Shown: positions 16,177-61,207, counted from the stretch's first letter. The stretch is DNA of 64,000 bases from an uncultured Nitrososphaerota archaeon (GCA_964408285.1 CAYOYV010000005.1:49235-113234), one strand, 5' to 3'. Numbers and translations are program-made. Notes: a model not told the origin generated them from the sequence alone.

Positions 16177-16180
16177 GATA

Positions 16181-26415: not shown

Positions 26416-26865
26416 ATGATTCCACCAAAGCTATCTTGGCTTGATATGCCCCTTCTGTCGGCGGTCTTTGTAATCCTCGTCCTTGTAGGTCTGACATATG
26501 GCAAAGGCGATACGCTTAAGGTCACGGCTTCAATTCAGCCTCTTTCAATAAGGCCAGGAACTCAAGCCAAGATAACTGCAACATTGAGGAATCTGGGAAA
26601 CAGCCCAATCGAGCTGGAATTCCCTTCATCTAAAACATTCGATTTTGCCGTATCGGGACAAAATGGACATTATCGATGGTCGACGGACAGATTCTTCCTA
26701 ACCGTCATAACCAAGATCGCGCTAGCTCCGGGACAGGAAATCGACGCAACCTTCATTTGGACAGTTGATCTTCCCCCCGGAGATTACCGACTCAGAATAT
26801 TCTTGGAACCGATTTCGGGTTCGAGGATCGAATCGGAGGCCGTTGATCTAGTAATAAGGGCTTAG
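26416..26865 (+). CDS. Secreted BsuPI-like Ig-fold protein
   Basis: Signal-like N-terminus; LRN.G..PIELEFPSSKTFDF..YRWS..FF.....LAPGQE..W pattern of BsuPI domains. Confidence 0.6.
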   Translation: MIPPKLSWLDMPLLSAVFVILVLVGLTYGKGDTLKVTASIQPLSIRPGTQAKITATLRNLGNSPIELEFPSSKTFDFAVSGQNGHYRWSTDRFFLTVITKIALAPGQEIDATFIWTVDLPPGDYRLRIFLEPISGSRIESEAVDLVIRA

Positions 26866-27959
26866 CACGGCCGGACTCGAACTCGAGCCGGGACGTATAC
26901 CGGGAAAATAACGGTTATGCCTTCGATCCTACTTTCCATCGAAGAAGACTTGGAGCCATCGCTCCAACCACTAAGTGTCATCAGTCCGTGTTCTGTCTCC
27001 ACCATACTCATGGCCTTTACAACATGCGTTGATCCCGATTCCCACTCGAAGTAGTGGATTCCGGGTCTCAGCGGTTCACCGTCTACGAGAAGTGAGTCTT
27101 CATACAGGGACACAACGCAGATAAGGAAGAAGAGTTGAACTCTAACGGAGACGAACGCCCCTGATGGAGCATGAGTCCCATTTCCCAGATTCAACACCTC
27201 AATGCTCCAGTCCCCAGTCTCATCGAACCTTAGAGACTTCTGAAAGTGTCCCTCCCCATCAGCAGTGAGATCTATTTGTGAGGTCCTTCCTGAAGGACTC
27301 TTCAGATTCATCTGCATCCTCGCAGTTCCTGAGGGTGATGCGAAACCCTCTACAAGGAATGGTTCGCTCATGTTGATCTCGTGAGGCAAGTCAAGCAAAG
27401 TCACCTTTGTCAGGATCTTAATCGGCTTAGAAGTCCCAGGCTCCGGAGGAGGCAGAGGAGGCGTGCCTGTATCGTCATATCCACCGAAGTCTGTTGTCCA
27501 ATAATAGCCATATGTGGAAGAGACATTGAAAGCGAGGCCTATTCCGATCACAACGAACGCCTCGAAGAGCATGTTCTCATTGTGACCTGATGAAGCCTTC
27601 CAAGCCTCGAAAACAGACTCAGCGGTGGAGAAGCCCGCAGCTATGTTTTCGCCCAGATATGTCTGATAGGTGTAGCCCGCGTCCCTTATCCTTTGGTCAA
27701 ATGTCCTGCCGTCCAGACTTGTGTGGCTGAAATAGTTGTGCATCGCCATGTCAAGACTGTGTCCCTGAGCAGCCATAGTCAAAGGGGAAGACAGCTTTAG
27801 AGGATTCCGACCTTGACTGATTCTGTATTGGTTCAGCAGATACAAGAATGTCTCCTTCTCGTCTTCAGCCCTGAGCAGATGGGCGTGTCTGGGCAGGACT
27901 GACGAAAGTACCAATATTGCCATGAGAAAAACGAGCTTCTTGCTGTGGGATCGATACAA
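26862..27959 (-). CDS. Secreted CAP (SCP) domain protein with Pro-rich linker and beta-rich C-terminus
   Basis: Signal peptide, AAQGHSLDMA..YFSH, GENIAAG, W..SSGHNENML, YWTTDFG. Confidence 0.85.
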   Translation of the reverse strand: MYRSHSKKLVFLMAILVLSSVLPRHAHLLRAEDEKETFLYLLNQYRISQGRNPLKLSSPLTMAAQGHSLDMAMHNYFSHTSLDGRTFDQRIRDAGYTYQTYLGENIAAGFSTAESVFEAWKASSGHNENMLFEAFVVIGIGLAFNVSSTYGYYWTTDFGGYDDTGTPPLPPPEPGTSKPIKILTKVTLLDLPHEINMSEPFLVEGFASPSGTARMQMNLKSPSGRTSQIDLTADGEGHFQKSLRFDETGDWSIEVLNLGNGTHAPSGAFVSVRVQLFFLICVVSLYEDSLLVDGEPLRPGIHYFEWESGSTHVVKAMSMVETEHGLMTLSGWSDGSKSSSMESRIEGITVIFPVYVPARVRVRPC

Positions 27960-30119: not shown

Positions 30120-32912
30120 ATGGCAGAAGCATTTGGGATCGTAGTACCTCACACTCATTGGGACAGAGAATGGTATCTGACCTACCAAGAGTACAGGCTT
30201 AGGCTTGTCAGGGTATTGGACAGGCTTTTGGAGTTGTTTGAGGCAGGATGGAGCGTTCCGTGCTTCATCATGGATGGTCAGACATCCGTCCTGGAGGACT
30301 ATCTGGAATTGCGGCCTGAAAATGAGCGCAGATTAACCAGGCTGATTTCCAAGGGAAGGCTAAAGGTTGGGCCGTGGTATACGCAACCTGATGAATTCCT
30401 GTGCTCTCCGGAATCCATGATCAGGAACCTCTTGATCGCCAGAAAGATGGCAGAAAGGAAAGGTTGGGTCATCATGGAGATCGGATATGTCCCGGACACA
30501 TTCGGGCATGTCTCTACCTTGCCAACCATCTTCAGCGGCTTCGGGCTGGACACATTTGTCTTCACAAGAGGACTTGGCGATGAAGCCAGGAAGCTGCCCC
30601 TTGAATTCATATGGGAAGCCCCGGATGGCAGCAAGCTGCTCGCCAGCTATCTATTTAGAGGATATTGCGCAATGATGGGTCTGGGATATTTGGGAGGCTC
30701 CTTTCAGTCAAGGTATGCGGAGACTCCTGAGGGATGGGGATCAGTCTACCTTGATGTGCACTATAGGGAGCCCTCAATCGACCTAGATGAGGCTCTCAAG
30801 AGAGTGCAAGGATTCACTGAGATGGCTCGGAAGAGGTCATCAACAGGGGTCCTCTTGTTTATGAATGGCTGTGATCATCTCCCCCCTCAGTCCTCAATAG
30901 CGCAAATTGTTGGGCACATCAATGCATGTAGTGATTCTGTGAGACTGAAGATGGGTTCTTTTGAGGAGTATTTCAAAGAAGTGAAGAAGAGGCTCACAAA
31001 TCCGGAAGTGCATAGGGGTGAAATGAGAGGTTGCCTCGAAATCCCTCTTCTGTGGGGTGTTACCTCGACAAGAACCTACCTCAAACAGGAGAATTACAGG
31101 GCAACATCCCTCCTTGAATCCTATGCGGAACCTCTGTTGGCAATCGCATGGTTCTTGGGAGCTGACCTTCCCGATGCTTCGGTGGAACTTGCATGGAAGC
31201 TTGTGCTTCAGAATCAAGCACATGATAGCATATACGGGACCGGCGTTGACCCTCTTCACAGGGAAAATGAATCCAGATTCCTGCAGGCAATAGGCATTGC
31301 CAGCAATCTTGCATACGATAGTCTCAGGTATATTGGAGAGAGAATGAAGAAGACTTCCGTCTCGCCATATGATTCCGAGATCGTCGTATTCAATCCCCAT
31401 CTGTGCGATCTGCCTGTCCCCGTCGTCTTCCAGGCGCAGATCCTTGACGGACCCATGGAGCTTGTTGACGACACTGGGGACAGCTTTCCTGTTCAGGCAA
31501 TTGGAAGCAGCGGAGGCAGCAGCATCGTGACTGGTCTGTCCGATGTCTGCTCAGTCTTAGTCCTGCCTCAATTCGGCATTAAGAAATTCGGACTGAGGAA
31601 ACATGCAGCGACACATTACGATCTGCCAAGAGGCCCCAGTTGGATCGAGAATGAGTATTTCAAAGTGGAGGCAGCCGCTGAGCTCGGAGGAATGCTTCGA
31701 GTCACAGACAAGGAACTTCAAAGGGTATTCGACGGATTCAATGTCTTCATTGATGAGGGAGATGCCGGGGATTCCTATGACTACTCTCCTCCCAAGGAGG
31801 ATCGCGTCATCAGAAGCGACACTGTGAGCGCAGAAGTCACATCCTATTCGGGACCAGTTAGGGCCTCGCTGCGCCTGAGGACGACCATCATGGTTCCATC
31901 TGCTTCCGATGGAAACAGAAGATCGAGCATTCTAGTGCCCCTGCCGATAATATCTGAGGTCATCCTTTGGAAAAATGTGCCGAGGATCGATTTCAAGGTG
32001 GATGTCGACAATTCGGCCAAAGACCATAGATTTCGGGTCGAATTCCCCCTGGGCTTCGAGGTCAGATCCTCAACTTCAGAGGGTCATTTCTCGGTCGTCA
32101 GCAGGTCGAAAACGCGACCTACGGGAGAGGGTTGGGTAGAGAAGCCACCCCAGACTCATCCTGCACTGAGCTGGGTCGATGCCTCGAACGGAACCCTCGG
32201 TTTGATGATTGCAAACAAGGGCACCCCCGAGTACGAACTAACCGAAGACGGAAAGAGACTGCTTATTACGCTCTTTAGGTCCATAGGTTGGCTGTCCAAG
32301 GAAGACCTTCCCATCCGCCCGGGTCATGCTGGCCCAGGTACAGAGACTCCTGACGCTCAGATGATTGGCAAATGGAGATTCGAGTACTCGGCGGTACTTC
32401 ACAGGGGTGATTGGAAGGATTCATACATGATCGCAAGAGGCTTCTCGACACCGCCATTTGCGATCACGGTCAGTTCGCTTTCCGAACGTGCCGAGACGAA
32501 TCGCTCGCCCTGCCCATGCCAGGGGAAACAGCATCCCTCCTCGAGTAGGCTGAGTTCCACAGTCGAATCCGTGCCGAAGTCTTCTTGGTCGATCTTGAGC
32601 AATGTCGGGGACGAAGTCTCCCTCACTGCCTTCAAGAAAGGAGCACCCAGGGGCTCCCTCCTCTTCAGGATAGCCGATCTGAGAGGGGAAGGCGCGAAGC
32701 CCGTTTTGATCGTCGGAACAGAAGCTCGCGCGATCAGGAATGCTGATTTCTCTGAGAAGCCAATCGGGCAGATTCCATCATCCAGAAATCAGCCCTTGCA
32801 GTTCAGCATGAAGCCAAATGAGGTCAAGACAATATTGTTCTATCCCCGGCGACCTAGAGGCCGTCCCTCGAACAGCAACGCCAGGTCCTCAAACAAAGCC
32901 AGCGCCTCCTGA
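30120..32912 (+). CDS. GH38 alpha-mannosidase
   Basis: VPHTHWDREWY, MDGQ, VGPWYTQPDEF, YVPDTFGH, NGCDH, NQAHDSIYG, GDSYDYSP. Confidence 0.92.
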   Translation: MAEAFGIVVPHTHWDREWYLTYQEYRLRLVRVLDRLLELFEAGWSVPCFIMDGQTSVLEDYLELRPENERRLTRLISKGRLKVGPWYTQPDEFLCSPESMIRNLLIARKMAERKGWVIMEIGYVPDTFGHVSTLPTIFSGFGLDTFVFTRGLGDEARKLPLEFIWEAPDGSKLLASYLFRGYCAMMGLGYLGGSFQSRYAETPEGWGSVYLDVHYREPSIDLDEALKRVQGFTEMARKRSSTGVLLFMNGCDHLPPQSSIAQIVGHINACSDSVRLKMGSFEEYFKEVKKRLTNPEVHRGEMRGCLEIPLLWGVTSTRTYLKQENYRATSLLESYAEPLLAIAWFLGADLPDASVELAWKLVLQNQAHDSIYGTGVDPLHRENESRFLQAIGIASNLAYDSLRYIGERMKKTSVSPYDSEIVVFNPHLCDLPVPVVFQAQILDGPMELVDDTGDSFPVQAIGSSGGSSIVTGLSDVCSVLVLPQFGIKKFGLRKHAATHYDLPRGPSWIENEYFKVEAAAELGGMLRVTDKELQRVFDGFNVFIDEGDAGDSYDYSPPKEDRVIRSDTVSAEVTSYSGPVRASLRLRTTIMVPSASDGNRRSSILVPLPIISEVILWKNVPRIDFKVDVDNSAKDHRFRVEFPLGFEVRSSTSEGHFSVVSRSKTRPTGEGWVEKPPQTHPALSWVDASNGTLGLMIANKGTPEYELTEDGKRLLITLFRSIGWLSKEDLPIRPGHAGPGTETPDAQMIGKWRFEYSAVLHRGDWKDSYMIARGFSTPPFAITVSSLSERAETNRSPCPCQGKQHPSSSRLSSTVESVPKSSWSILSNVGDEVSLTAFKKGAPRGSLLFRIADLRGEGAKPVLIVGTEARAIRNADFSEKPIGQIPSSRNQPLQFSMKPNEVKTILFYPRRPRGRPSNSNARSSNKASAS

Positions 32913-35528: not shown

Positions 35529-37346
35529 TCACCTGACTCCTCCTCCGCCTCCACCGAATCCCCCGCCGCCTCCGAAACCTCCTCCACCGCCACCCATGCC
35601 TCCCCCTCCTCGAGAGCTCTTGGGAGCCACCCAGGTCACGATTGGATGGAAGGTTGTATACATCCTTGGTACGAATTCGGCCATTTCAACCGGAACATTG
35701 AGTACCTTCATGGCTTCTGCTACCTTATCACCAACGCCAAGGGCCGTCCCATATGCAAGCCACTCCCCCCACATTGCTAGATCCTGAGGTGCATATTGCC
35801 TGATTAGAGCGAGGTCAGAAAGGAAGCTCCTGAATGCGTCCCACTCCAATCTCTCCTTGTATGTATCCTTCTTCCATTTTCCAAACAATGTTGATGGAAA
35901 GGCCATCGCGATAATTGTCTGAGCCAGCGGAATGAGCGACATGAAATGCGATTCTCCCCACGACAAATATGGCAGGACAGGAATCATCTCTTCTGCTAGG
36001 AACCCCCCAATGAATAAAACGATCGGCAGGGGAAGGAATGCCAAAAGCTTCTTTCTCCCCTCCTCTACGAACTCACTTCCGACTTCCGGATCCGCTTTAT
36101 GGAATAAGTAGACATAGTCCCTTTGCATCTCCATCAGGAATCCGTAGCTTCTCTCTGATGATTGAGCACGAATCAGCTCCTTGAGCTTGTCAGATTCAAC
36201 CACTCCATCTACGCTCATTTTCTGTAGGAAGCCGAGGGCTCTGAGTTCGTAGTGGTCTCCGTGGTTTGGATCGAGTACCTTGATCGACAAAGAGTCCCCG
36301 TGACTCGATATCTTGATCTTGCCCTTCATGTGGAGATCCAACAGAGTGGCATAGAATCCATTTTGATCGAAGTCAAACGCATCATCGCTGAATACCAAAT
36401 TGACGAGCCAAGGTTTTCTATCCTTGTTCGGCACGAAGCTAAGGTAAGAAGGAACCACGAACATCCGTTCTCTTCCGAACAGAAAATAGACTACAATGAA
36501 TAATGCAGGATATACGAACATCAGGACTACCGGCGCCATGTTGACAAGAAGTGCAACATAATACTGGGCAGAGTATGCCAGATTCGCCTGGTCCGTCTGC
36601 CCCTTGACATCATTCATTGGTGTTGAGAATGACGCCAGGAGCTTCAGAACGTCCTTCTTAAGGAGCATCTCAATTTCGATCATCTCATTTCTGGCGGCAG
36701 TTCCCGATATGATGACCCTATCCCCGTTCTTCGTCACCTTCAATAGAGGAGGATGTGGATATAGCTCTACAATGTATTCGGCATCCTCCAGAACTATCCT
36801 GACATCTCGATACGGGATATGCTCGTTTGCCAACTTCAAGTTGAGATGAACTAGGTTCTGATCATTCTGAGTCGGCGGGAATATCCTGAATCTGTACGTG
36901 ACTGCGTAAATCCCGGCCGACAGCCTTTCTGGCTTATAGCAACCTACCTCATTTGACACTGCCAATTGCGCTATCGCACTCACAATGGCGGGATTCCGGT
37001 CATACGGCGGATCGACCCAAACGGAACCTTCGTTGTCCTTCATGTATCTTACTAGGCCTTCGGGAGCAGATATGGACAGCAACCTTATGTACGGTTCGTT
37101 GAGCTTGTCCCTTGTAAGAGGGGCCTCCCATGTCCTATACAGCATCCTGTATCTCCCTGAGACTCCTATATTGTAGAGGTAGTCCTCAACAAGGGTCCCA
37201 TTCGCAAAGAGGGTAGCGTGATATTCATCTGCAGCTACACGTTCCTCCTCAATTCCCCCGGCAACGAATCTTGTGAGGGAGAATCCGATAGCTCCTACTG
37301 CTACGGTGATGATGACGAGTGCCGAAATGAGCTTGGTCTCAGACAA
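35529..37346 (-). CDS. DUF2207 family membrane protein
   Basis: Extracellular domain, ATLLDL, W.AFRSFL, WGEWLAYGTALGV, Gly-rich C-terminus; follows lemA. Confidence 0.85.
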   Translation of the reverse strand: MSETKLISALVIITVAVGAIGFSLTRFVAGGIEEERVAADEYHATLFANGTLVEDYLYNIGVSGRYRMLYRTWEAPLTRDKLNEPYIRLLSISAPEGLVRYMKDNEGSVWVDPPYDRNPAIVSAIAQLAVSNEVGCYKPERLSAGIYAVTYRFRIFPPTQNDQNLVHLNLKLANEHIPYRDVRIVLEDAEYIVELYPHPPLLKVTKNGDRVIISGTAARNEMIEIEMLLKKDVLKLLASFSTPMNDVKGQTDQANLAYSAQYYVALLVNMAPVVLMFVYPALFIVVYFLFGRERMFVVPSYLSFVPNKDRKPWLVNLVFSDDAFDFDQNGFYATLLDLHMKGKIKISSHGDSLSIKVLDPNHGDHYELRALGFLQKMSVDGVVESDKLKELIRAQSSERSYGFLMEMQRDYVYLFHKADPEVGSEFVEEGRKKLLAFLPLPIVLFIGGFLAEEMIPVLPYLSWGESHFMSLIPLAQTIIAMAFPSTLFGKWKKDTYKERLEWDAFRSFLSDLALIRQYAPQDLAMWGEWLAYGTALGVGDKVAEAMKVLNVPVEMAEFVPRMYTTFHPIVTWVAPKSSRGGGGMGGGGGGFGGGGGFGGGGGGVR

Positions 37347-37357
37347 TCTCCCCTCAC

Positions 37358-37921
37358 TTAGAACTCTATCTTCGGCGGCTTCTCAATCTCTTCCTCGAAC
37401 TTGAGATAATCCATTCTTCCTAGCCCCGTAAGACCGGCCACGAATTTAGATGGAACCGTGTCCATCATTATGTTGAATTGCTGGATTATGTTGTTATAGG
37501 TGTATCTTTGCCTTGCTATTTCGTCCTCGACGCTCTTCACAGAATCCATAAGATTCGTGACCGTGCCTGATGTTTTTAGATCAGGATACGCCTCCGCGAC
37601 TGCAACTATGTTGCCGAATATCCGCCTCGACTCGCGGTCTATCTCACCCAAATCGGTGGCCCCTGCTTTGGCTATCCCGCTCCTTAGGCTCGTTACCTTT
37701 TCCAGAACCTCTCTTTCGAATCTTGCATAGCTTTTGACCGAATCAAGCAACTGCTCGATCATGTCAAGTCTCTTCTTCATCGCGACCCTAATCTGACCAA
37801 GAGTGGCATCGGCTGAATTCTTCAGGCTGAAGAACCTGTTATAGATTCCTATGACGTAGAGAATCACAAGAATGGCGATGAGCGCAACGAATCCTATTAT
37901 GGCAAGTGATAACAAGTCCAT
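37358..37921 (-). CDS. lemA: LemA family protein
   Basis: N-terminal TM, YN, KKRLDMI, AVAEAYPDLK, EDEIARQRYTYN. Confidence 0.92.
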   Translation of the reverse strand: MDLLSLAIIGFVALIAILVILYVIGIYNRFFSLKNSADATLGQIRVAMKKRLDMIEQLLDSVKSYARFEREVLEKVTSLRSGIAKAGATDLGEIDRESRRIFGNIVAVAEAYPDLKTSGTVTNLMDSVKSVEDEIARQRYTYNNIIQQFNIMMDTVPSKFVAGLTGLGRMDYLKFEEEIEKPPKIEF

Positions 37922-37927
37922 TTCCCT

Positions 37928-38821
37928 TTACCTCGCGGTGCGAACGTGCCACATCCTCTTAAAGCTTGCTTCATCAGGATTGCCCCCGTGACTATTGTCA
38001 GGAAGGACGACAGTTGCCTGCAGACCTTGATTGCCTGATGACGGTTTGGACCTTATGCTCAGAACAAGTATGATGAATAGAATCAAACAGGAAAATACAG
38101 GTATAGTAACAGAAACAGGCAGACCGAGAATTGATGTGAGCAAGTCACTTTCCTGGGATTCAGACGCAGGATAGTCACCTAGTTCGCCTTCGGCGTAATA
38201 TCTCACCAGCTCCATATAACGTGTCCAATTCCAGTTCCCACCGGGGTCATAGTGATGGCTTGCTCCCCCTCCCAGATTGACATTCTTCGGATCAGGAACT
38301 TGGTCATGACCTATGATTCCACTGCCTTTCGAAGGGTCTGCTGGGGCAAGACCGATAGGGTGATTCAAAGATATGTTATATTTTCTCACGAGGTATCCCA
38401 CCATCTTGGCTGATCCACGGTATTCCTTGTCGGTGAACAGATCCTGATCCGCATAGCCAGCGTGCTCAATTCCTATCGAGTGTTCGTTGTAGGCCCAATT
38501 CCCCGCGTGCCAAGCTATGTCCTTGTCCCTGACCATCTGATAGATATTCCCCTCATAGTCCACCACATAGTGGGAACTGGCCTTCGCTCTGATATCCTTG
38601 AACCAATTCATTGCTGCCTGCGCAGTGCCTTCTATATCGTGTATCACTATCCATCTTATAATCAATCCGTTGGATTCCCTATCGCTCTCCGTGAAATTCG
38701 AGCTCAGCGCGGGCTCCCACTCAGCGCCGGGATAATCCGTGCTTGATGATATGGCAAAACCTAGGAGCATCATCCCCAAGAGAAGAAGAGCGATTGATAC
38801 GACTGCCCGAACCGATCCCAC
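37928..38821 (-). CDS. Membrane-anchored N-acetylmuramoyl-L-alanine amidase (Amidase_2)
   Basis: Signal/anchor, IVIHD, SSHYVVD, AWHAG, NEHSIGIEH, IIGHDQV, HYDPG..W.W; C-terminal TM helix. Confidence 0.9.
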   Translation of the reverse strand: MGSVRAVVSIALLLLGMMLLGFAISSSTDYPGAEWEPALSSNFTESDRESNGLIIRWIVIHDIEGTAQAAMNWFKDIRAKASSHYVVDYEGNIYQMVRDKDIAWHAGNWAYNEHSIGIEHAGYADQDLFTDKEYRGSAKMVGYLVRKYNISLNHPIGLAPADPSKGSGIIGHDQVPDPKNVNLGGGASHHYDPGGNWNWTRYMELVRYYAEGELGDYPASESQESDLLTSILGLPVSVTIPVFSCLILFIILVLSIRSKPSSGNQGLQATVVLPDNSHGGNPDEASFKRMWHVRTAR

Positions 38822-38914
38822 GATCGGATTGGTTGCTTTGCCTCTAATAAGAATTGCGATTCAGCGCTGCAATCTAACGTTAAAATAGTTGCCAGAGAAA
38901 TCCCTCTGGCATCA

Positions 38915-40210
38915 ATGAGCCCATCATGCACCGAAATCGCCAGTTTCGAAGCGGGCTTGCTCTTGCTGCTTGTGCTTGTGGCTGTGGCTCGGACTTGCCA
39001 TCCAGATGCGGGATCCTTCGTGGCAGAAGTCTGGTTGGGGATGTATAGCGATAACTGGTCAAGTGACAAGCAAACTTGGTCGAAGCAAGTTGACGAGCGA
39101 TTCAGTTCTCTGAGGGAGGCCGGGATCGATGCAATTTATTTCATGGTGAAGGACCCTTGGGGATATGTATATTATGAATCGAAGTATGCTCCATTATCTT
39201 CGAAGTACAGCTGGGATCTCTTGAAGGAAGTCCTTGAGAAGGCGAAATCGTACAATCTGAAGATCTATCCCTACGTAAACGCTCTCGCTGAGGGCGAATC
39301 CCAACCTGGTTTCTATCTAAATGCTCATCCAGAGATGGCAATCCTTTCTACCTCAGATGAAAGAGGATGGGTGGATCCTTCGAGTACTGAGTACATTGAC
39401 AGATTGGTCTCAATCGTGGAGGAGATAGCGACGAACTATGATATCGATGGTATTCAGTTGGATAGAATCAGAATGCCGGGGAGGGTAATCAGAGCGAAGG
39501 CCAGTCAGGAACTCTACAAGCAATTGACAGGCCTGTCCCCTCAAGACGATGATACGAAATGGCAAGACTTCATGAGAGAACGGGTTACGCAGGTGGTCGT
39601 ACGAGTTAAGGAAAGACTGAAAGCCATAGACCGCGACCTCAGATTCTCAGTTGCCGTTTTTCCCTCTCCCTTGAGTGCTCGGACAAACCAACTCCAAGAC
39701 TGGACTAGATGGGTCAAAGAAGGTTATGTGGACTATGTCTGCACAATGGCATATGCCCAAGGAATCATGACCTTCAAGTCCTATGTAGATGAGGAAATGA
39801 AGGAGTCAACTCCCTCTAGGCTTCATGTGGGCATTGCTGCCTATCTTCTGGGAGCAGCCGATTTGAGCCTTCAGATGAAATATGTTGTTCTTGATTCTGG
39901 TTTGCCTGCAGTTGTCTTCTTCAATGGGGACGCCCTAACGTCGAACAAAGATCTCCTGAGCGCAATAGCGAAAGGAAAGGAGGGTCAATTTGAAAAAGAA
40001 TCTCCATATGGATTTCTCCTTACGGGGGCTGGTATTGCAGCCATTGCGGGAGTCCTTGCCGTCTTCCTGCTTGCTAGGAGGAGAAGGAAACCTGCCAACC
40101 TGATTGCTGCTGCACTTCCCTCACATGCTGCTTGGTTCATCTTGTCAGGGACGGGAACGGACCCGGTTTCATCACAGGTCCCCTACGCCAAGGCAGGACA
40201 TAGTAACTAA
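38915..40210 (+). CDS. Membrane-anchored GHL10 family glycosyl hydrolase
   Basis: Hydrophobic N-terminus, WVDP, YDIDGIQLDRIR, FSVAVF, QDWTRW..EGYVDYVCTMAY; C-terminal TM followed by RRRRK. Confidence 0.82.
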   Translation: MSPSCTEIASFEAGLLLLLVLVAVARTCHPDAGSFVAEVWLGMYSDNWSSDKQTWSKQVDERFSSLREAGIDAIYFMVKDPWGYVYYESKYAPLSSKYSWDLLKEVLEKAKSYNLKIYPYVNALAEGESQPGFYLNAHPEMAILSTSDERGWVDPSSTEYIDRLVSIVEEIATNYDIDGIQLDRIRMPGRVIRAKASQELYKQLTGLSPQDDDTKWQDFMRERVTQVVVRVKERLKAIDRDLRFSVAVFPSPLSARTNQLQDWTRWVKEGYVDYVCTMAYAQGIMTFKSYVDEEMKESTPSRLHVGIAAYLLGAADLSLQMKYVVLDSGLPAVVFFNGDALTSNKDLLSAIAKGKEGQFEKESPYGFLLTGAGIAAIAGVLAVFLLARRRRKPANLIAAALPSHAAWFILSGTGTDPVSSQVPYAKAGHSN

Positions 40211-40247
40211 AGGAAGCATTAGGTCTGTAAGAGTTAAATCATCGAGT

Positions 40248-40679
40248 ATGAAGTCTGACCTAGATTTGAACATCAAGATCTTCTTGACAAGTATCTCGGG
40301 AGAGAGATTTTGGGATGTGGACGTGCCACCTCCGCCTCAATTGCAGATAGGAGTCAACATAAATGTCCTAGACATGAAACAGAAGTCAGAGAGTTCTGCT
40401 GAAGTGCCCTTCATTCTGACCGTTCAATACACCCCATCGATGGGGCAACTGACAGCAAAAGGCAGGGCGGGAATTGATGGAACGGCTGAGGAAATAGCAC
40501 AGCTGAAGTCAGGCGTGCAGACGAATCAGCTTCCGACGATGGTGGTTCAGGCCGTCAGCAGCTTCGTCATGGGTGAACTTGTAATCCTCAGCAAATCGCT
40601 GGGCCTGCCGCCCCCACTGCCACCCATGGTGCCCCAGACTCAGCTGACGCAGGAAGGGCAACAACGCTTCACAATCTGA
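40248..40679 (+). CDS. Conserved archaeal hypothetical protein (possible SecB-like fold)
   Basis: Beta-rich N-half, PFILTVQYTP, helix then LGLPPPLPP; ATG 40248. Confidence 0.55.
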   Translation: MKSDLDLNIKIFLTSISGERFWDVDVPPPPQLQIGVNINVLDMKQKSESSAEVPFILTVQYTPSMGQLTAKGRAGIDGTAEEIAQLKSGVQTNQLPTMVVQAVSSFVMGELVILSKSLGLPPPLPPMVPQTQLTQEGQQRFTI

Positions 40680-40760: not shown

Positions 40761-42872
40761 TTGGGAACAGTTATCAACACGTATCGACGCACTGCCTCAA
40801 TGGTCCGCGGGACATGTAATCCCATAGTGACGGAAAAAGGCCGGAAAATCACTTTCGAGATCCTCTGGAAGGACAAGCCCCCGATTGATGTGAGATTGGT
40901 GAAACCGTCGAACCCGGTTCTAGAGCTGGGAGTGAGGACGAAGAGGCATGGGATTCGGATAGCCTACGACGATACTGACAGAGAAGGATTGTATCTATTC
41001 AATATCGTCAGTGGCCAAACCAAAAGGAAACGGTGTGTCTTGGTTGGCGATTTGATCGCAGATTGGTATACCGCGTCCATGGCCATAGAGCAAGGCAAAG
41101 AGGGAATTGTGAGACACCTCGACTCATTCTCGCAACATGGAAATCTGATTGTCCTACATCATCTGACTGGTCCTGAAGGCGTCTTCTACGAGAGTCGGCA
41201 ATTCCCAATCGCTGAGAACGCAGAACCTGCCCTAATAGATTTCTTTCTTTCGGAATCAGCACGAAGGGGATGCACTGTTCTCTTTTCCTATCACTGGGTT
41301 CCTGATGACTACATCAACATGTGGAGACATCCTTCCCCTAAGCAGATATTTCAGGCCAAGAGGGTCATAGAGGAACTCCATCAACGATACTCTCGTTACG
41401 ATTCTATGGCAGGATTCTATGCATACTGGGAGCCCGGAGATGTGCAGGATCTCCCATACTATCGAGAGACGATGGATTACGTCAAGCGACTTGACACTGG
41501 TCTATTCACCGCGTGTGCGCCCTATGTCTTCTCCACCGAAAGATACCAGGGAGGATCGCTTCCGTTGATATTCTCTGCGCTGTCTTCTGTCCGATCTCTT
41601 GATTGTTTTATACCCCAATCAAGTGTTGCGGTCTTTCCTTACCCATTGAGTAGAACAAAGGATCATATTCTGCTTGCAGCTGCTTCATCGAGTGGCCTAG
41701 GGAAAATAGTCCTCGGTCATGTTGAGACTTTTGGAAGATCGTTTGTCAAGGGAGAATCTGCACCTCCTTCTTCATTCATTGAGGCCCAGATACTCGGTGC
41801 TTCATTGACAAGTGGGGCTTCTGGAGATGCATTCTTCGTCTATGCCTATCTGCTTGGTAGGAGACCGAATGAGAATGGCTCCATTGAGAGGGCAATGAAA
41901 TTCCTCAAGCTCACAGGTCCCCACAGAAGGAAGCCGATTCCAGTGGCCGTCTATTCCCCCCTTCAAGCGTCTCACTGGCCCAACGTTCTAAGTCCTTTTC
42001 TCCTGAGGACTCGAAAGCTGGGCTTGGACCTCGGTGTTGTACAGCCCCCTTTCTCGTGTGACAGGAAATGGAAGAGATGGATCAAGTCAAATGTCAAGGT
42101 GCTTATTCTGCCCGATCCTCCTGAACTCGTAGAATCGGAGGCCGGATTCCTGGCGGAATATATCAAAGACGGAGGGGAACTCGTAGTTATCGGCTATCCT
42201 CCTAGCGGGATCCGGAAACTGATGGGAATCGAAAGCAGGAACATAGGGAGATATGGTGGCCTCAAGCTGCTGAGAGCATTGGGCGAAAGGGTATCGATTG
42301 ACACTGTGAGTAGATTCGGGTTCGAGCTAGTCTTTTGCGCTACATGTGTGGAGGCAGAGCCCCTAGCAGTCTATGAATCAATCCCCTCCGGATATCAACC
42401 CGGGGCCTATGCCATCGCGAGGATGCAGAGAGGCCGAGGTTCTGGATTCTTCATCGGACTTCCATCAGCTTTGCTGCTCGAGAAAATCCCGAATATCCTG
42501 CTTGACATTCTGGATGCCGCTCTGTCAAGGAATGACCTTCGGATTCCTTGGGAAGTCAGAGGTCTGACCGATGAATGCGACTTGATGAGCAAGGAGGATT
42601 TCTTGGCAGCAGTGAACTATGCAGAAAAGGAGATCGAGGCGACCGCTATCTTTCGAGGCGCAGTGGGGAGAAGGTCTCTCCAATTGATCGGAGATGCGTA
42701 TCCTGTGAGGCATTCTGGGGAAGCAATTGAGCTAAGACTCCTGCTTAGGCAATGTAAGCCAGCAGGGGCCGTTCTCGTGAGACAATCGGGAGTGGATTGC
42801 CCAAACGCGATGGAATGTGATGAACTCCCAGATTCAGTTAAGCCACAGGATCAATCGCTGGCAACCCAATGA
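40761..42872 (+). CDS. Putative glycoside hydrolase (DUF4434-like barrel plus GATase1/trimerisation-like domain)
   Basis: ELHQRY..YDSMAGFYAYWEP, PQSSV, HVETF, then LAEYIKDGGELV and GRGSGFFIG; start uncertain. Confidence 0.5.
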   Translation: MGTVINTYRRTASMVRGTCNPIVTEKGRKITFEILWKDKPPIDVRLVKPSNPVLELGVRTKRHGIRIAYDDTDREGLYLFNIVSGQTKRKRCVLVGDLIADWYTASMAIEQGKEGIVRHLDSFSQHGNLIVLHHLTGPEGVFYESRQFPIAENAEPALIDFFLSESARRGCTVLFSYHWVPDDYINMWRHPSPKQIFQAKRVIEELHQRYSRYDSMAGFYAYWEPGDVQDLPYYRETMDYVKRLDTGLFTACAPYVFSTERYQGGSLPLIFSALSSVRSLDCFIPQSSVAVFPYPLSRTKDHILLAAASSSGLGKIVLGHVETFGRSFVKGESAPPSSFIEAQILGASLTSGASGDAFFVYAYLLGRRPNENGSIERAMKFLKLTGPHRRKPIPVAVYSPLQASHWPNVLSPFLLRTRKLGLDLGVVQPPFSCDRKWKRWIKSNVKVLILPDPPELVESEAGFLAEYIKDGGELVVIGYPPSGIRKLMGIESRNIGRYGGLKLLRALGERVSIDTVSRFGFELVFCATCVEAEPLAVYESIPSGYQPGAYAIARMQRGRGSGFFIGLPSALLLEKIPNILLDILDAALSRNDLRIPWEVRGLTDECDLMSKEDFLAAVNYAEKEIEATAIFRGAVGRRSLQLIGDAYPVRHSGEAIELRLLLRQCKPAGAVLVRQSGVDCPNAMECDELPDSVKPQDQSLATQ

Positions 42873-48056: not shown

Positions 48057-49115
48057 CTAGAAAATTATGATATTCCAAGGCTTCACACTGACACCCACTT
48101 TTTCACCGATTCTTCTACGCAGCATTCGGTAGGATTCCTTCGGATTGCCCTTGCAATGCACAATGATTCCATTTACGTCTACCTTGGCGGCAATATTGGT
48201 GCCACCGTAGATTACAGCTATGAGTCTGCCGTTGATCAAACCATCTTCAGGTCTTACCACTCTGGTCTCTTCTGGCCTGAACAGAATCTTCGCTTCAGCC
48301 CCCGTTGATGCCCACCATTTCGGTTTCACGACGCGTACTCTTCTCTCGCTCACCGAGATCAGTACGCTTTTCTGATCGATGTTTTCCACGGAACACTCCA
48401 ACTGATTCGACGCTCCAAGGAACCTTGCGGATTTCTCTGTAGGCGGCAATCCATAGACCTCACTCGTCAGGCCGAACGCATCAATCGATCCATCAAAGAG
48501 AATGGCAAGCTGATCGCTCATCAAGACCGCTTCCGTTTGGTCATGAGTCACATAGATCGTAGTAATATTGAGGCTTTTCTGTATCTCCTTTATGACCTCT
48601 GATATCTCGATCTTGAGTGATGGATCTAGGCCCGCAAGAGGCTCGTCGAGCAGCAAGACATCCACTTCAGCAGATATGGCCCTTCCGATTGCAACCCTTT
48701 GCTGTTGTCCGCCGCTCAGCTCATGAGGGTATCTCTTCTCAAGGCCTATCAGCTCAACCATTTCAACTACCTTCTTCACCCTTTGGGCAGTTGATGCCGA
48801 ATCCCTGCCCCTGGCCTCAAGAGGGAAGGATATGTTTTCGTTCACGCTCAGGTTCGGGAATAGGGCCAGATTCTGAAAGACCATTCCCACCCTCCGCACT
48901 GAAGGGGCAAGGTCGGTCACATCCCTGTTTCCGAAGAAAATCCTACCGGAGTCAGGTGTCAGCAGCCCAGCGATGATCTTGAGGACCGTGGTTTTTCCAC
49001 TTCCGCTCGGACCCAGCAAAGCCACTATCGTGCCTGATGGCACATCAAGAGACATGTCATCGACAGCTAGGACTTTCCCATATGCCTTGCTTACGTTTTC
49101 AAGCCTCAAGTTCAT
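48057..49115 (-). CDS. thiQ: Thiamine ABC transporter ATP-binding subunit
   Basis: GPSGSGKT, LSGGQQQR, LLDEP, VTHDQ; operon under a TPP riboswitch. Confidence 0.8.
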   Translation of the reverse strand: MNLRLENVSKAYGKVLAVDDMSLDVPSGTIVALLGPSGSGKTTVLKIIAGLLTPDSGRIFFGNRDVTDLAPSVRRVGMVFQNLALFPNLSVNENISFPLEARGRDSASTAQRVKKVVEMVELIGLEKRYPHELSGGQQQRVAIGRAISAEVDVLLLDEPLAGLDPSLKIEISEVIKEIQKSLNITTIYVTHDQTEAVLMSDQLAILFDGSIDAFGLTSEVYGLPPTEKSARFLGASNQLECSVENIDQKSVLISVSERRVRVVKPKWWASTGAEAKILFRPEETRVVRPEDGLINGRLIAVIYGGTNIAAKVDVNGIIVHCKGNPKESYRMLRRRIGEKVGVSVKPWNIIIF

Positions 49116-50762
49116 CTAGAAAACCTCCAGAGCTTCCTCAGATGCGAACGAGCTGAGAATCTCAGCCGTAATGACAACCACAACTATCAAACCTGTCAAG
49201 GCAGAGGCAAGATCTAGTCTTCTGAGGTCGATCAGGGCAGCCACAGAAACCGGGAGAGGCATGAGGCTTAAGGTGCTGAAGAAATCGGAGAATGTGAACT
49301 CGCTGATTGACGATGAGAATGCAAGCAGAAAGGATGCAACCATCGCAGGAGCCATAAGTGGTATCTCCAACCGAATGAGTCTGAAGATCCTGCTTGCGCC
49401 AGATGTCTCGGCAGCCTGTCTGACCTCCGGTCCTATCTTCAGCCATGACGCCTCAATCACCCTTGATATGAGCGGGACGATTATTGCGACATGCCCGAGC
49501 ACGATCAGCACCCAACTTCCATAGAGCCTAAGCAAACCGAATCCATAGGAGAGCATCATCCCGAGGGCCAAAGAGGCCCTGGAAATCGAAATGGGTATGG
49601 ATAGAAGCAGGCTGTTGAGCCTTCTGATGCTCTCCATTTCTCCGCTCATCCAGATGACAAGCGTCGAGATTGCAAGGGATAGAAAAGAAGCCAGAACAGC
49701 TATTGATAGACTCTGGAGGAAAGCATCGACGAATCTGATTCCGAAACCGAATTCAACACTCATGAGTTGGATGTAGTTATCCAAGGATAGGGAAGTCGGC
49801 ACCAATATGAATGGACCTGTAGACACTGCCTGCGCGAGAATCAGATAGATCGGCAGCAGTTCGACGAGCATCAATAGCGTTGAATAGGCTAGCAGAATTC
49901 TGCCGGCCATTCCTGAAAACAGTGGCCTCGACATCCTTCCCACACGTGGGACTGTCTTTCCCCTAAAGTAGAGCTTCTCCCTAAAGACTATTATGACAAT
50001 AGAGAGAACCATGGTCAGGCATAGCTGGAAAAGGGCGATGGATGCGGATATCGGTCTCGTTCGAGTTGAGTATATCTCGACCTCAAGGGTCGAGAACCTT
50101 CCTCCGATCAGCACAGGCGTGGAATATGAGATGAATGAGAAGGCAAAGATCAGTAGACCTGCAGCCGCAACCGAAGGGAGAAGTTGATTGGCATAAGTTG
50201 CTCTGAAAGCCAGCATCCATCCAGCTCCGGCTACGTTGGCGGCATCTAAGAGTTCTTGATCGACTCTTGAGAATCCTTCTTCCAATATTATGACAGCCAA
50301 CGGCATATAATAGAACACATGAGCAATGACGACCGCCGTCATTGAGTATAGTACGTCAATTATCGGAGCTTGGGCCCCGAGAATAACGTAACCGATCTGA
50401 TTGACCAAACCTCTTTGGCCCAAAAGCATTATCATTCCTTCCGTGACAGCAAATGCAGGTGCAAAGAAAGGAGTCAACATTAGATTTCTCATCAGACCTG
50501 AACCTCTAAAGGAGTATTTTGCGAAGAAATAGGAAATTGGCAGCGCCAGAAGTATTGATGGTATGGTAGATGCCGCGGCTTGGATCGCGGTATTCTGGGT
50601 TAATCTGATTATATACGGATCGGAGAGCAAGGAAGCCAATTGCTGGAGATCTGTCTGGTAGACGATGTAGGCTATCGGAATTAGATAGAAGAAGACCAGG
50701 AAGAAACCAAAGGGAGCGAGAAAGACCAGGCTTTCTAGGCTCCTTTGATTTCTCTTCTCCAT
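49116..50762 (-). CDS. thiP: Thiamine ABC transporter permease
   Basis: Duplicated permease with two EAA-like loops (DAANVAGA, QAAETSGA). Confidence 0.82.
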   Translation of the reverse strand: MEKRNQRSLESLVFLAPFGFFLVFFYLIPIAYIVYQTDLQQLASLLSDPYIIRLTQNTAIQAAASTIPSILLALPISYFFAKYSFRGSGLMRNLMLTPFFAPAFAVTEGMIMLLGQRGLVNQIGYVILGAQAPIIDVLYSMTAVVIAHVFYYMPLAVIILEEGFSRVDQELLDAANVAGAGWMLAFRATYANQLLPSVAAAGLLIFAFSFISYSTPVLIGGRFSTLEVEIYSTRTRPISASIALFQLCLTMVLSIVIIVFREKLYFRGKTVPRVGRMSRPLFSGMAGRILLAYSTLLMLVELLPIYLILAQAVSTGPFILVPTSLSLDNYIQLMSVEFGFGIRFVDAFLQSLSIAVLASFLSLAISTLVIWMSGEMESIRRLNSLLLSIPISISRASLALGMMLSYGFGLLRLYGSWVLIVLGHVAIIVPLISRVIEASWLKIGPEVRQAAETSGASRIFRLIRLEIPLMAPAMVASFLLAFSSSISEFTFSDFFSTLSLMPLPVSVAALIDLRRLDLASALTGLIVVVVITAEILSSFASEEALEVF

Positions 50763-51754
50763 CTATCCAACCACTCCACCACATTCCCAGCTATATCAGA
50801 CTTGAATGTTATCTTCGACTGCGGAATAGGAGCATTTGCCAGTGCTGAGTACGAGGCCCTCGGATTGACGGGATACATATAACCAGCAGGAGAGACGATG
50901 TTCTGTCCTTCAGTGCTTAGAACGAATTCTATGAATTTCTTCGCTATCTCAGGATGCGCAGCCCCTTTGACGAGCCCAATCCCCTCCCTGTATACGAAGC
51001 CCTCTATGGCGGCTGATTTCAATTTGGGCGTCTCAGAATATTCGACATCTGTGTTGAACATGCTCCCTATCGCAACTTCTCCGAGCTTCAGTGCAACGAT
51101 CGACGATGTCCATCCTGAAGGATGAATCTTCACGTTTGACTCTAACGATTTCAAGAATGAGAAACCGCCCTCAGTGCCCTTGACTGATAAAACCCATACT
51201 AGGAATGACAACCCGGTGCCGCTTGAACTTGGATCCTGATAGAAAACCAGTCCCTTGTATTCCGGGCGGAGAAGATCATCCAAGGCCTTGGGTATGGGCA
51301 ATCCCTTTGCCTTGATCACTGTTTCATTATACGTTATCAACACATACCCTTTATCCACAGGGTGAAGGCGATTTGTCGAATCCCATCTCTCGGTTTCCGG
51401 AACCATGCTGAGATTGCCAGGAGTGAAGATTTGCAGGACGTCCGCGTCCAACACCTGCTTTGAGTAGAACTCCGGAAGCCCAAGGATGACATCGGCCTGA
51501 GGCTTGCTCTTCTCCGAAATGAGTTTGTTCGCAATCTCTATTGAACCCATCTCAAAGTGAGCAAAAGTAACATTCACACTGAATCTTTTTCGGAATTCGT
51601 TTATCAATGCCGTTGCCATGCTTCTGATGCCACGAGGGCCATACACCACTAGTCTGTCTTCCAGCTTTGGCTGCATCAATAGGAAAAGAAGAGAACCGAG
51701 AATTGCGATTGCGATGGCACCAGCCATAATCTTCCACTTGCTTCCCACTTCCAT
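50735..51754 (-). CDS. thiB: Thiamine ABC transporter substrate-binding protein
   Basis: EKSKPQADVILG, QDPSSSGTG..FL, GW; N-terminal anchor; AGGTGAGG SD before ATG 51754. Confidence 0.85.
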   Translation of the reverse strand: MEVGSKWKIMAGAIAIAILGSLLFLLMQPKLEDRLVVYGPRGIRSMATALINEFRKRFSVNVTFAHFEMGSIEIANKLISEKSKPQADVILGLPEFYSKQVLDADVLQIFTPGNLSMVPETERWDSTNRLHPVDKGYVLITYNETVIKAKGLPIPKALDDLLRPEYKGLVFYQDPSSSGTGLSFLVWVLSVKGTEGGFSFLKSLESNVKIHPSGWTSSIVALKLGEVAIGSMFNTDVEYSETPKLKSAAIEGFVYREGIGLVKGAAHPEIAKKFIEFVLSTEGQNIVSPAGYMYPVNPRASYSALANAPIPQSKITFKSDIAGNVVEWLDRWRREIKGA

Positions 51755-51815
51755 CTGCCTCACCTTTTCTTGACTCAGGTAAAGGATGCCGTATCGGATG
51801 AGGACGCTTTTTCGA

Positions 51816-51903
51816 GCATCCCTACGCCGGCATTATCCGGATCAGGTTCTGAGGGTTGACGCGCATGACCGCGTCATCTCAGCCAAATATCGGCACCCCT
51901 TGC
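51816..51903 (-). ncRNA. TPP (THI) riboswitch aptamer
   Basis: Minus strand reads GCAAGGGGTGCC..GGCTGAGAT..ACCCTCAGAACCTGATCCGGATAATGCCGGCGTAGGGATGC, the canonical TPP consensus, upstream of thiBPQ. Confidence 0.93.
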
Positions 51904-51927
51904 CTGTCCCCTGGGTTCCTTCTCTCC

Positions 51928-55181: not shown

Positions 55182-55191
55182 AATTTATCAC

Positions 55192-57269: not shown

Positions 57270-57763
57270 GGGAACTCACCATACTCCTTGATGTATTCAA
57301 CAATCCCCCCCTTCTGCAGGATCTTCGAGATGAAGTGCGGAAATGGCTTGAATGTCCATTCAAGCCTTCTTGAGTGGTTCAGTATCAACGAGTTCTCCAT
57401 ATCGACTTCGAGGTCATCTCCCTCATGGGTCTCATCTACAAAATCGCTAGAGGCAGAGATCGGCGGCAGGCCTATGTTAATCGCATTTCTATAGAATATT
57501 CTGGCAAAGGATGTCGCCACAACTGCTTGGACCCCCTTCATCCTAAGAAGCCGGGGAGCGTGCTCTCTGCTCGAGCCACAACCAAAATTCCTTCCTGCAA
57601 CCAGAATCGTTCCCTCGACCATTCTCTTTGACAGACTCGGATCTAGATCCTCGAAGAGGTGATCTGAGAGCTCCCGGAGATCTTGACCCTTGAACTTGAA
57701 CTTCCCAGATATGATAAGATCGGTGTTTATTTGATCTCCGAGTTTGACGACTCTCCCCCTCAT
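57254..57763 (-). CDS. Homoaconitase small subunit (LeuD family)
   Basis: INTDLII, NFGCGSSREHA, SFARIFYRNAINIGL. Confidence 0.87.
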   Translation of the reverse strand: MRGRVVKLGDQINTDLIISGKFKFKGQDLRELSDHLFEDLDPSLSKRMVEGTILVAGRNFGCGSSREHAPRLLRMKGVQAVVATSFARIFYRNAINIGLPPISASSDFVDETHEGDDLEVDMENSLILNHSRRLEWTFKPFPHFISKILQKGGIVEYIKEYGEFPWNTR

Positions 57764-57773
57764 ACCGCAGCCA

Positions 57774-59027: not shown

Positions 59028-59039
59028 GATGTTGTTCCG

Positions 59040-60347: not shown

Positions 60348-60357
60348 TACGACTTGA

Positions 60358-61206: not shown

Positions 61207-61207
61207 A

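Follow-up and report, generated by a model that had tools for sequence, protein, structure and literature searches.

Comparison with described peptidoglycan-degrading systems

In Escherichia coli, the N-acetylmuramoyl-L-alanine amidases AmiA/B/C and then DigH (YddW), a GHL10 hydrolase specific for denuded glycans (PMC12288456), act on peptidoglycan. Here we describe a locus from an uncultured Nitrososphaerota archaeon, in which an Amidase_2 gene and a GHL10 gene stand side by side. The locus lies in a stretch of 64,000 nucleotides (nt; GCA_964408285.1, CAYOYV010000005.1:49235-113234), hereafter the window, and positions are counted from its first letter. We propose that the two products form a coupled, membrane-tethered pair that takes apart bacterial peptidoglycan or its shed fragments, mainly for feeding. 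This model as a whole is put forward with moderate confidence, and that both enzymes act on the same murein-derived substrate is held with high confidence.

The pair resembles the E. coli system in combining a MurNAc-L-Ala amidase (MurNAc, N-acetylmuramic acid) with a PF02638 enzyme of triosephosphate isomerase (TIM)-barrel fold for the same polymer. Unlike the E. coli enzymes, which work on the cell's own septum, the Amidase_2 enzyme occurs here in an organism without murein, and the genes for the two activities are neighbours or have been fused. The E. coli amidases AmiA/B/C are of the Amidase_3 type. DigH carries the motif FDDY and a lipoprotein anchor, whereas the GHL10 protein of the window has LDRI and a membrane-helix anchor.

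Cwp19 of Clostridioides difficile is a GHL10 lytic transglycosylase (PMC6016235). In its structure (5oq2/5oq3), the second Asp of the DDY motif (D195-D196-Y197), Asp196, is proposed to be catalytic (PMC5765458). Cwp19 is the best match of the window's protein in both sequence and fold, and G306 aligns with the Cwp19 Gly (numbered 328 in that paper) that stands in for the usual nucleophile on strand 7. Moreover, anhydro-MurNAc, the product of a Cwp19-type lytic transglycosylase, would fit the AnmK gene found in the archaeal genome. In contrast, the proposed catalytic Asp196 corresponds to Arg184 in the window's protein, the identity is only 16%, and Cwp19, attached through CWB2 wall-binding repeats, serves the autolysis of its own producer.

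Bacillus subtilis recycles its wall with NagZ, AmiE and NamZ outside the cell and MurQ inside (PMC8054146). As described there, exported glycosidases and a muramoyl-L-alanine amidase free monomers, which are imported and pass through MurQ, and the archaeal gene set resembles this arrangement. B. subtilis differs in using NamZ (GH171) and in recycling its own wall, of which the archaeon has none. AmiE belongs to another amidase family. The Staphylococcus aureus autolysin Atl is a bifunctional amidase/endo-beta-N-acetylglucosaminidase (PMC6262408), and fused relatives of the window's pair (G005, P0134-P0140, L023 and L024) likewise join an amidase and a glycan-cutting domain in one exported protein. 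Unlike these relatives, Atl is directed against the wall of its own cell, has wall-targeting repeats and is described with another glycosidase family.

Peptidoglycan hydrolases that kill bacteria are described from archaea, including Woldo, Danwoldo (Halogranum salarium) and a GH25 muramidase (Aciduliprofundum boonei) (PMC12352652). The survey of Strock et al. (2025), which required a catalytic and a wall-binding domain, reports 175 of 3,706 archaeal genomes (PMC12352652). The window's pair shares with the published enzymes that bacterial-type wall hydrolases are exported by murein-less archaea, are patchily distributed and probably come from bacteria. The published enzymes are secreted and modular with a binding domain, whereas the window's pair has catalytic domains only and falls outside the modular definition. 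The main text of that survey names neither GHL10, Amidase_2, Thermoproteota nor transmembrane, and its supplementary tables may list relatives. Searches of PMC and bioRxiv gave no paper in which archaea are described with MurNAc catabolism or with this enzyme pair, and none on an N-acetylmuramoyl-L-alanine amidase and peptidoglycan in Bathyarchaeota. Among the papers listed for MurQ and archaea, none concerns archaeal MurNAc use by its title or the start of its abstract, and in the Bathyarchaeota literature peptidoglycan is mentioned in passing only, in two papers.

Organization of the locus

The two genes diverge from a 93-bp spacer (38822-38914), exactly as the sequence-only reading had described. 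The amidase is composed of an N-terminal hydrophobic segment, the Amidase_2 domain, a short linker, a C-terminal membrane helix and a basic tail of ~40 residues. The GHL10 protein contains, in the same direction, an N-terminal hydrophobic segment, the TIM-barrel domain, a C-terminal membrane helix and a basic tail. The features of the locus are as follows.

37928-38821, minus strand: Amidase_2 gene, open reading frame (ORF) of 297 residues (aa) with GTG start, Pfam PF01510
38753-38818, minus strand: N-terminal hydrophobic helix of the amidase, residues 2-23, hydropathy maximum 2.66, helix in the model
38240-38659, minus strand: Amidase_2 catalytic domain, residues 55-194, with H61, E119, H172 and D192; window and genome profile scans agree
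38051-38116, minus strand: C-terminal membrane helix of the amidase, residues 236-257, followed by R-S-K, hydropathy maximum 2.87, helix in the model
38822-38914: divergent spacer, 93 bp, between the amidase GTG and the GHL10 ATG
38843-38852: A/T-rich box, 22-31 nt upstream of the amidase GTG
38880-38887: TATA-like TTAAAATA, 28-35 nt upstream of the GHL10 ATG
38915-40210, plus strand: GHL10-clade gene, ORF of 431 aa with ATG start, Pfam PF02638
39029-39859, plus strand: TIM-barrel domain of the GHL10 protein, residues 39-315; two profile scans agree
40004-40084, plus strand: C-terminal membrane helix of the GHL10 protein, residues 364-390, followed by RRRRK, hydropathy maximum 2.44, helix in the model

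Compared with the archaeal promoter consensus, the two boxes in the spacer are possible TATA boxes for leaderless or short-leader transcripts. The junctions of the locus recur in contigs from other sediment runs, and the locus is therefore not an assembly chimera. A 901-nt contig (run X4, record 20) covers 38153-39051 with parts of the amidase gene, the spacer and the GHL10 gene, and a 1737-nt contig (run X7, record 26) covers 36558-38294 with DUF2207, LemA and amidase sequence, both at ≥99% identity; the two runs possibly belong to one campaign.

Both proteins are predicted, from hydropathy and AlphaFold models, to be ecto-enzymes tethered to the membrane. Kyte-Doolittle means over 19 residues exceed 1.6 only at the N- and C-termini of the two proteins, where the AlphaFold models place helices at 2-23 and 236-257 in the amidase and at 6-24 and 364-390 in the GHL10 protein. 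The basic residues that follow the C-terminal helices (RSK and RRRRK, respectively) fit a catalytic domain outside and a tail in the cytoplasm. According to hydropathy and models, the tether linkers span ~10-25 residues in both enzymes. A C-terminal segment comparable to that of the GHL10 protein is present in most clade members (alignment A2). Hydrophobic helices at both ends of both proteins agree with the N-terminal signal and C-terminal membrane anchor that had been read from the sequence, and the N-terminal segments may be either cleaved signal peptides or signal anchors.

The amidase

The amidase matches PF01510 with E 6e-30 (104.7 bits, Pfam cut-off 26; 106.6 bits in the genome scan), and is the sole Amidase_2 match in the whole genome by profile scan. 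Its translation contains the motifs IVIHD, IIGHD, HYDPG and SIGIEH. H61, E119, H172 and D192 are unchanged across 26 aligned clade members (alignment A1), so the intact zinc ligands and catalytic Glu first read from the motifs are borne out. In the phmmer alignment to AmpD, E119 corresponds to E116 and D192 to the zinc ligand D164. The zinc His pair (H61, H172) was assigned through the motifs and the extent of the Pfam match, not through residue-level alignment.

The AlphaFold2 model of the amidase has a mean predicted local distance difference test (pLDDT) score of 73.9. Foldseek returns ten matches for it at E ≤ 0.001, each of them a peptidoglycan amidase of MurNAc-L-Ala specificity, with AmpD first; they include the B. 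subtilis endolysin (3hmb), XlyA, AmiA and PlyP100, and PlyL follows at E 2e-3. In 16 of the 26 rows of A1, judged by eye, a hydrophobic stretch lies past the catalytic domain, and the short rows (203-222 aa) stop before it. In the Pfam scan, the amidase and the GHL10 protein each show the catalytic domain alone, and no wall-binding domain was found in either.

In the amidase tree, which like the GHL10 tree is quick and unrooted, the window's copy groups with Thermoproteota copies, the fused ones included (7 rows; Shimodaira-Hasegawa-like approximate likelihood-ratio test, SH-aLRT, 89). The rest of the family is mostly bacterial, and other archaeal copies fall elsewhere in the tree. The nearest titled amidase loci are labelled Nitrososphaerota, Thermoproteota or Sulfolobales archaeon.

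The GHL10 protein

The GHL10 protein matches PF02638 with E 1e-30 and 107.5 bits (Pfam cut-off 27.9), compared with 453 bits for E. coli DigH, and has no NCBIfam match. Its AlphaFold2 model has a pLDDT of 90.2. The best fold match in Foldseek is Cwp19 (5oq3; E 8e-22, template modelling score 0.75, 16% identity in the structural alignment), followed by one alpha-L-fucosidase entry and then by the glycosidase domain of PgaB. A profile built from 68 relatives also finds Cwp19, with E 2e-53. The protein had been read as a DigH-family GHL10. Its membership stands at the Pfam level, and close kinship with DigH does not, as the two share 24% identity and read LDRI and FDDY, respectively. The sequence comparisons indicate that it is a divergent GHL10 branch and not a near relative of DigH.

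The amidase-linked GHL10 proteins form one clade in the tree (26 rows, SH-aLRT 99), and E. coli DigH and five of the paralogs encoded by the window's own genome fall outside it. Together with the amidase grouping, this clade is what the phylogenies asked of both genes have yielded. All records of this small clade so far are Thermoproteota-labelled or unlabelled.

Elsewhere in the window, a GHL10-like match of 72 bits at 23338-23961 (minus strand) is broken by one TGA and one TAA. This decayed-looking sequence adjoins an alpha-L-fucosidase gene (24354-25550) and is probably a decayed paralog.

Linkage of the two enzymes in relatives

Fusions, adjacency and the tree together support a functional link between the amidase and the GHL10 protein, and the pairing is not a product of chance. 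Among 61 related genomes, a count that takes in the window's own genome (G000), the amidase is present in six. Close GHL10 orthologs occur in G000, G005, G008, G012, G014 and G021, and fragments in G011. In G012 (L003) the pair is divergent and intact with a 54-bp spacer, and the amidase stops before any C-terminal anchor. In G011 the pair is divergent but both genes are broken, and in G005 (L014) amidase and GHL10 lie in one reading frame that ends in a membrane helix. The G012 amidase was considered as a pseudogene on account of one TAG in the match; this was dropped, as the ORF list gives an intact gene of 222 aa.

G012 also encodes a second exported GHL10 paralog of 395 aa on the other flank of the amidase (L003:155-1342, minus strand), which keeps an acidic Asp-Asp at the strand-4 site (IEDDF), unlike the window's clade. 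In G008, G014 and G021, where the amidase was not found, the GHL10 ortholog diverges from this same paralog.

Joined proteins are frequent in wider searches. PF01510 and PF02638 are carried in one protein by 7 of 22 non-self GHL10 homologs (word-index search, E ≤ 1e-5). An exhaustive search of 1.84 billion cluster representatives (50% identity) gave 14 GHL10 matches at E ≤ 1e-30, and the six closest representatives comprise two GHL10 proteins alone, two Amidase_2-GHL10 fusions and two GH18-Amidase_2-GHL10 fusions. A scan of metagenome contigs gave 64 GHL10 loci, of which tblastn places 37 in a tight clade and 27 further away. An amidase is present at 31 of the 37 tight-clade loci, where it is divergent in 3, fused in 2, part of a GH18-amidase-GHL10 arrangement in 10, and replaced in 16 by a second amidase type that is fused or directly adjacent; L117, L118, L121, L123, L131 and L142 have none. 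No amidase was found at any of the 27 more distant loci, several of which have little upstream sequence.

The second amidase type is similar to peptidoglycan recognition proteins (PGRP) and T7 lysozyme, with a His...His...Cys pattern, and is clearly unlike the window's type (alignment A2). Because the two types differ so clearly, amidases have been joined to the GHL10 clade at least twice. The conservation expected of the pairing thus holds for the linkage, seen at 31 of 37 tight-clade loci, and not for the divergent layout, which is gone in the nearest relative (L117/L118).

At its expected catalytic motif, the GH18 module of the triple fusion reads NIDFE (Asp-x-Glu) in L024:8936-11605 and NIDLK in L023:8837-11569, with Pfam scores of 66 and 32 bits, respectively, and may be inactive in some copies. 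Three Nonomuraea loci (L088, L095 and L098), from three actinomycete genomes, have a weak GHL10-like gene (~23% identity) ~1.1 kb upstream of a homologous amidase on the opposite strand, which hints that the amidase/GHL10 neighbourhood may exist in bacteria too.

The host and the search for murein-synthesis genes

The window belongs to contig C5 of a 1.82-Mb bin of 46 contigs, which is 93.7% complete and 2.64% contaminated. The tetranucleotide make-up of C5 correlates with that of the remaining bin at r = 0.985, and contig C6 encodes the archaeal/eukaryotic ribosomal protein S3Ae. Of the 16 named homologs of the neighbouring DUF2207 gene, 14 are archaeal (Thermoproteota, Bathyarchaeia and methanogens) and 2 bacterial. 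In addition, related archaeal bins hold orthologous loci of the amidase and GHL10 genes. The genome gave no archaeal small-subunit rRNA match, the 64-kb window contains no tRNA, and no archaeal hallmark gene was found in the window, where Pfam on 30 further ORFs returned metabolic and transport families only. The host is a Thermoproteota archaeon, probably near Bathyarchaeia by its labelled homologs. The archaeal origin suggested from the sequence is thus upheld, and as far as junctions, composition and archaeal markers reach, the contig is neither chimeric nor bacterial.

No match was found in this 93.7%-complete genome for Mur_ligase_M (PF08245), MurB_C (PF02873), FTSW_RODA_SPOVE (PF01098) or Transpeptidase (PF00905, penicillin-binding protein, PBP), profiles that each match 10 to 12 of the 14 controls, with all 10 bacterial genomes among them. 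The mur genes therefore appear to be lacking, as had been supposed, and the amidase would have no muramyl-peptide of the cell's own as substrate. The genome does not present itself as that of a murein producer, and a role as autolysin is not indicated.

Genes for MurNAc catabolism and candidate importers

All steps of a MurNAc/anhydro-MurNAc route (AnmK or MurK, MurQ, NagA and NagB) are encoded in the same genome, which backs the scavenging of necromass or fragments put forward in the sequence-only reading. MurQ scores 405, 395 and 374 bits against cut-offs of 168, 255 and 302 in three NCBIfam models. AnmK is full length (330 bits, positions 2-366 of 367), NagA scores 298.6 bits (cut-off 225.65), and a NagB-like protein matches Glucosamine_iso with 103 bits. 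The genome also contains two GH3 genes. To our knowledge, MurQ and AnmK have no role beyond the use of MurNAc and anhydro-MurNAc.

On contig C1 (L108:9003-10913, 4161-5948), MurQ is directly preceded by a gene for a BadF/BadG-type sugar kinase. At a distance of ~4 kb, past two glycolysis genes and on the opposite strand, is a gene for a GH84-like beta-N-acetylglucosaminidase. The kinase-MurQ neighbourhood looks like an archaeal MurNAc-utilisation operon. The MurK-like kinase is assigned to the BadF family only, with a weak NagK match (64 bits versus 370). On contig C13 (L184:1689-5481, minus strand), AnmK is followed by a neutral-ceramidase-like amidohydrolase and a permease (MFS_1_like) of the major facilitator superfamily (MFS) in a probable operon, and this permease is a candidate importer for anhydro-muropeptides. 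Moreover, genes for Opp-type ATP-binding cassette (ABC) ATPases adjoin the GH18-amidase-GHL10 gene at 9 of the 10 metagenome loci that carry it, and at both titled loci, L023 and L024.

Of the 61 related genomes, 17 have MurQ, including all 6 with the amidase and all with a GHL10 ortholog, whereas beyond the order a single genome of 35 has it; AnmK occurs in 15 of the 26 genomes of the order. None of four archaeal control genomes reaches the MurQ cut-off or matches AnmK.

Proposed function and alternative explanations

In the proposed model, short tethers would hold the amidase and the GHL10 enzyme at the outer face of the membrane, where they would meet peptidoglycan fragments or the frayed walls of dead bacteria. 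The Amidase_2 enzyme would split the stem peptide from MurNAc, and the GHL10 TIM-barrel enzyme would cut the MurNAc-N-acetylglucosamine (GlcNAc) glycan, by analogy with its relatives DigH and Cwp19, through either a hydrolytic or a lytic-transglycosylase reaction. Small products would be imported and catabolised in the cell, where AnmK would handle anhydro-MurNAc and the BadF-type kinase encoded beside MurQ would handle MurNAc. MurQ would then make GlcNAc-6-P, which NagA and the NagB-like enzyme would feed into glycolysis. The purpose would be mainly nutritional, with the necromass and the turnover fragments of cell walls in the sediment as food source. By analogy with DigH, the amidase would act first. 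Alternatively, the order could be reversed, with a lytic transglycosylase acting first and an AmpD-like amidase then working on anhydro-muropeptides, an order that AnmK fits.

The sequence-only reading had proposed a co-regulated two-step module that strips and then cuts bacterial walls at the archaeal surface. Its core stands, namely that an archaeon has two coupled enzymes, tethered at its surface, that degrade murein, most likely for scavenging; it was too specific in its DigH-like chemistry, in its co-regulation and in expecting the divergent layout to be conserved.

Several observations weigh against the proposed function. The strand-4 end of the GHL10 protein reads D183-R184-I185, so that, of the two Asp in the DDY motif shared by DigH and Cwp19, the first is kept and the second gone, and all 24 clade sequences are LD[RK]IR-like at this site, with D-Y-I-R in the wider subfamily (consensus LDYIRYP). 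Because of this reading and of the 24% identity, both DigH-like specificity for denuded glycans and the order with the amidase first stand by analogy. The GHL10 family is not uniform, as its member DogH is reported to act on starch (PMC9967864), and the family name is therefore a poor guide to function. The genome contains ~12 GHL10-like loci in a glycan-degrading background. The N-terminal n-region of the GHL10 protein has no basic residue.

On the amidase side, H190 occupies the position of AmpD K162 in the phmmer alignment. AmpD (K162) and T7 lysozyme (K128) have a Lys two residues ahead of the last zinc ligand, and H189-H190 is invariant in the amidase clade, which includes many bacterial members. 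G008, G014 and G021 have a GHL10 ortholog without an amidase match, and in G002 and G004 the amidase lies on short contigs with no GHL10 ortholog nearby. At the nearest relatives L117/L118 (~80% identity) no amidase lies within 4 kb, and the neighbours of the GHL10 gene are a hypothetical gene and an MFS transporter. Finally, the pairing counts are counts of loci, many of them near-copies, the related genomes are not independent, and "not found" in a bin that is 93.7% complete does not equal "absent".

The surface amidase and glycanase might also serve as a weapon that breaches neighbouring bacteria, in contact antagonism or predation. Archaeal peptidoglycan hydrolases kill bacteria in experiments (PMC12352652), and the amidase is patchy (6 of 61 genomes) and decayed in G011, a kind of distribution that the same survey reads as arms-race turnover. 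Its position inside a mostly bacterial family fits acquisition by transfer. However, linkers of this length leave little reach to the sacculus of another cell, the Pfam scan shows no domain that would hold the enzymes to a wall, the genome encodes a full route for burning MurNAc and anhydro-MurNAc, and the fused versions adjoin importers. For these reasons we consider killing the lesser reading and an unlikely main purpose, contrary to the place that contact antagonism had been given beside scavenging. The two are not exclusive, and killing could coexist with feeding.

Alternatively, the substrates could be glycans of the archaeon's own envelope (for example S-layer N-glycans, exopolysaccharide or an amino-sugar polymer), which the enzymes would remodel in place of murein. 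The many GHL10-like loci and the glycosidases of the window (fucosidase, GH38 mannosidase) would suit this explanation, as would a GHL10 active-site motif that departs from DigH and Cwp19, and the orthologs without amidase in G008, G014 and G021. GH18 domains, as found in some fusions, can also cut chitobiose cores. Such a role appears improbable, as the amidase model matches only MurNAc-L-Ala amidases at E ≤ 0.001, the searches for enzymes with which a muramyl-peptide could be made (MurB, Mur ligases, FtsW/RodA and PBP) gave no match, two distinct amidase types are fused to this GHL10 clade, and MurQ and AnmK make sense only with MurNAc. A chance landing of an acquired amidase beside some GHL10 paralog of unrelated substrate, which the many paralogs, the layout lost in the nearest relative and the unconserved LemA and DUF2207 neighbours would allow, is strongly disfavoured and very improbable, given an amidase at 31 of 37 clade loci versus 0 of 27 distant ones, fusions in 4 of the 6 closest cluster representatives, and a monophyletic clade that leaves the genome's own paralogs outside.

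Feeding by a tethered pair that degrades murein is thus preferred, and it can be tentatively extended, at slightly less than an even chance, to a whole order of sediment and hot-spring Thermoproteota. These would live partly on bacterial walls by means of a lineage-specific, tethered enzyme set around a GHL10 clade whose active site is non-canonical (Asp-Arg in place of Asp-Asp) and which was joined at least twice to amidases and in some lineages to GH18; the set would feed the first complete archaeal anhydro-MurNAc/MurNAc pathway (AnmK, MurQ, NagA and NagB). Peptidoglycan is a major share of sediment microbial necromass, and its anoxic consumers are poorly known. If the extension is true, peptidoglycan necromass, a pool of carbon and nitrogen that is large and turns over slowly, would be consumed directly by archaea, and abundant uncultured Thermoproteota would eat bacterial wall material with an enzyme set that standard surveys miss. 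This set lacks a wall-binding domain, is tethered to the membrane and includes a divergent GHL10. Moreover, the function of the poorly understood GHL10 family would gain a natural test, since this clade has been joined more than once in evolution to an enzyme whose specificity is known, and the finding of archaeal peptidoglycan hydrolases would be extended from killing towards feeding.

Neighbouring genes and other features of the window

Three genes flank the pair.

40761-42872, plus strand: orf703, 703 aa without signal segment, possible downstream partner of the GHL10 gene
37358-37921, minus strand: LemA (Pfam), 6-bp gap downstream of the amidase
35529-37346, minus strand: DUF2207 (Pfam), 11-bp gap after LemA

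Homologs of orf703 (54-56% identity) follow the GHL10 ortholog in G021 (L010), G014 (L013), L121 and L123. The protein has no Pfam or NCBIfam match, and a language-model atlas look-up, taken as a lead only, returns a DUF4434/GH42-like glycosidase with a high look-up score (0.96). LemA and DUF2207 are probably co-transcribed with the amidase here; as its functional partners they were rejected, being beside the amidase in no relative's locus searched. Homologs of DUF2207 are common across archaea. An orf191 (40104-40679) is probably not a gene, as it gives self matches only.

Further genes of the window are concerned with glycans and other metabolism. A tagaturonate epimerase gene (UxaE, 14614-16239) and a GH38 alpha-mannosidase gene (30120-32912) accompany the fucosidase gene at 24354-25550 among the glycan-degrading genes, and a protein with a CAP/SCP domain (cysteine-rich secretory protein family; 67.6 bits) is encoded at 26862-27959 (minus strand). 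An ABC importer operon, composed of a binding protein (50735-51763), a permease (49116-50762) and an ATPase (48057-49115), has a thiamine pyrophosphate (TPP) riboswitch upstream, at 51802-51910 (minus strand; 75 bits, gathering score 54.3), and probably takes up thiamine or a precursor. A long same-strand cluster at 52103-61239 (minus strand) contains an M20 peptidase, a class-III aminotransferase, an aconitase small subunit and a homocitrate-synthase-like gene, and from those of its genes that were scanned it looks like a LysW-type alpha-aminoadipate pathway for lysine.

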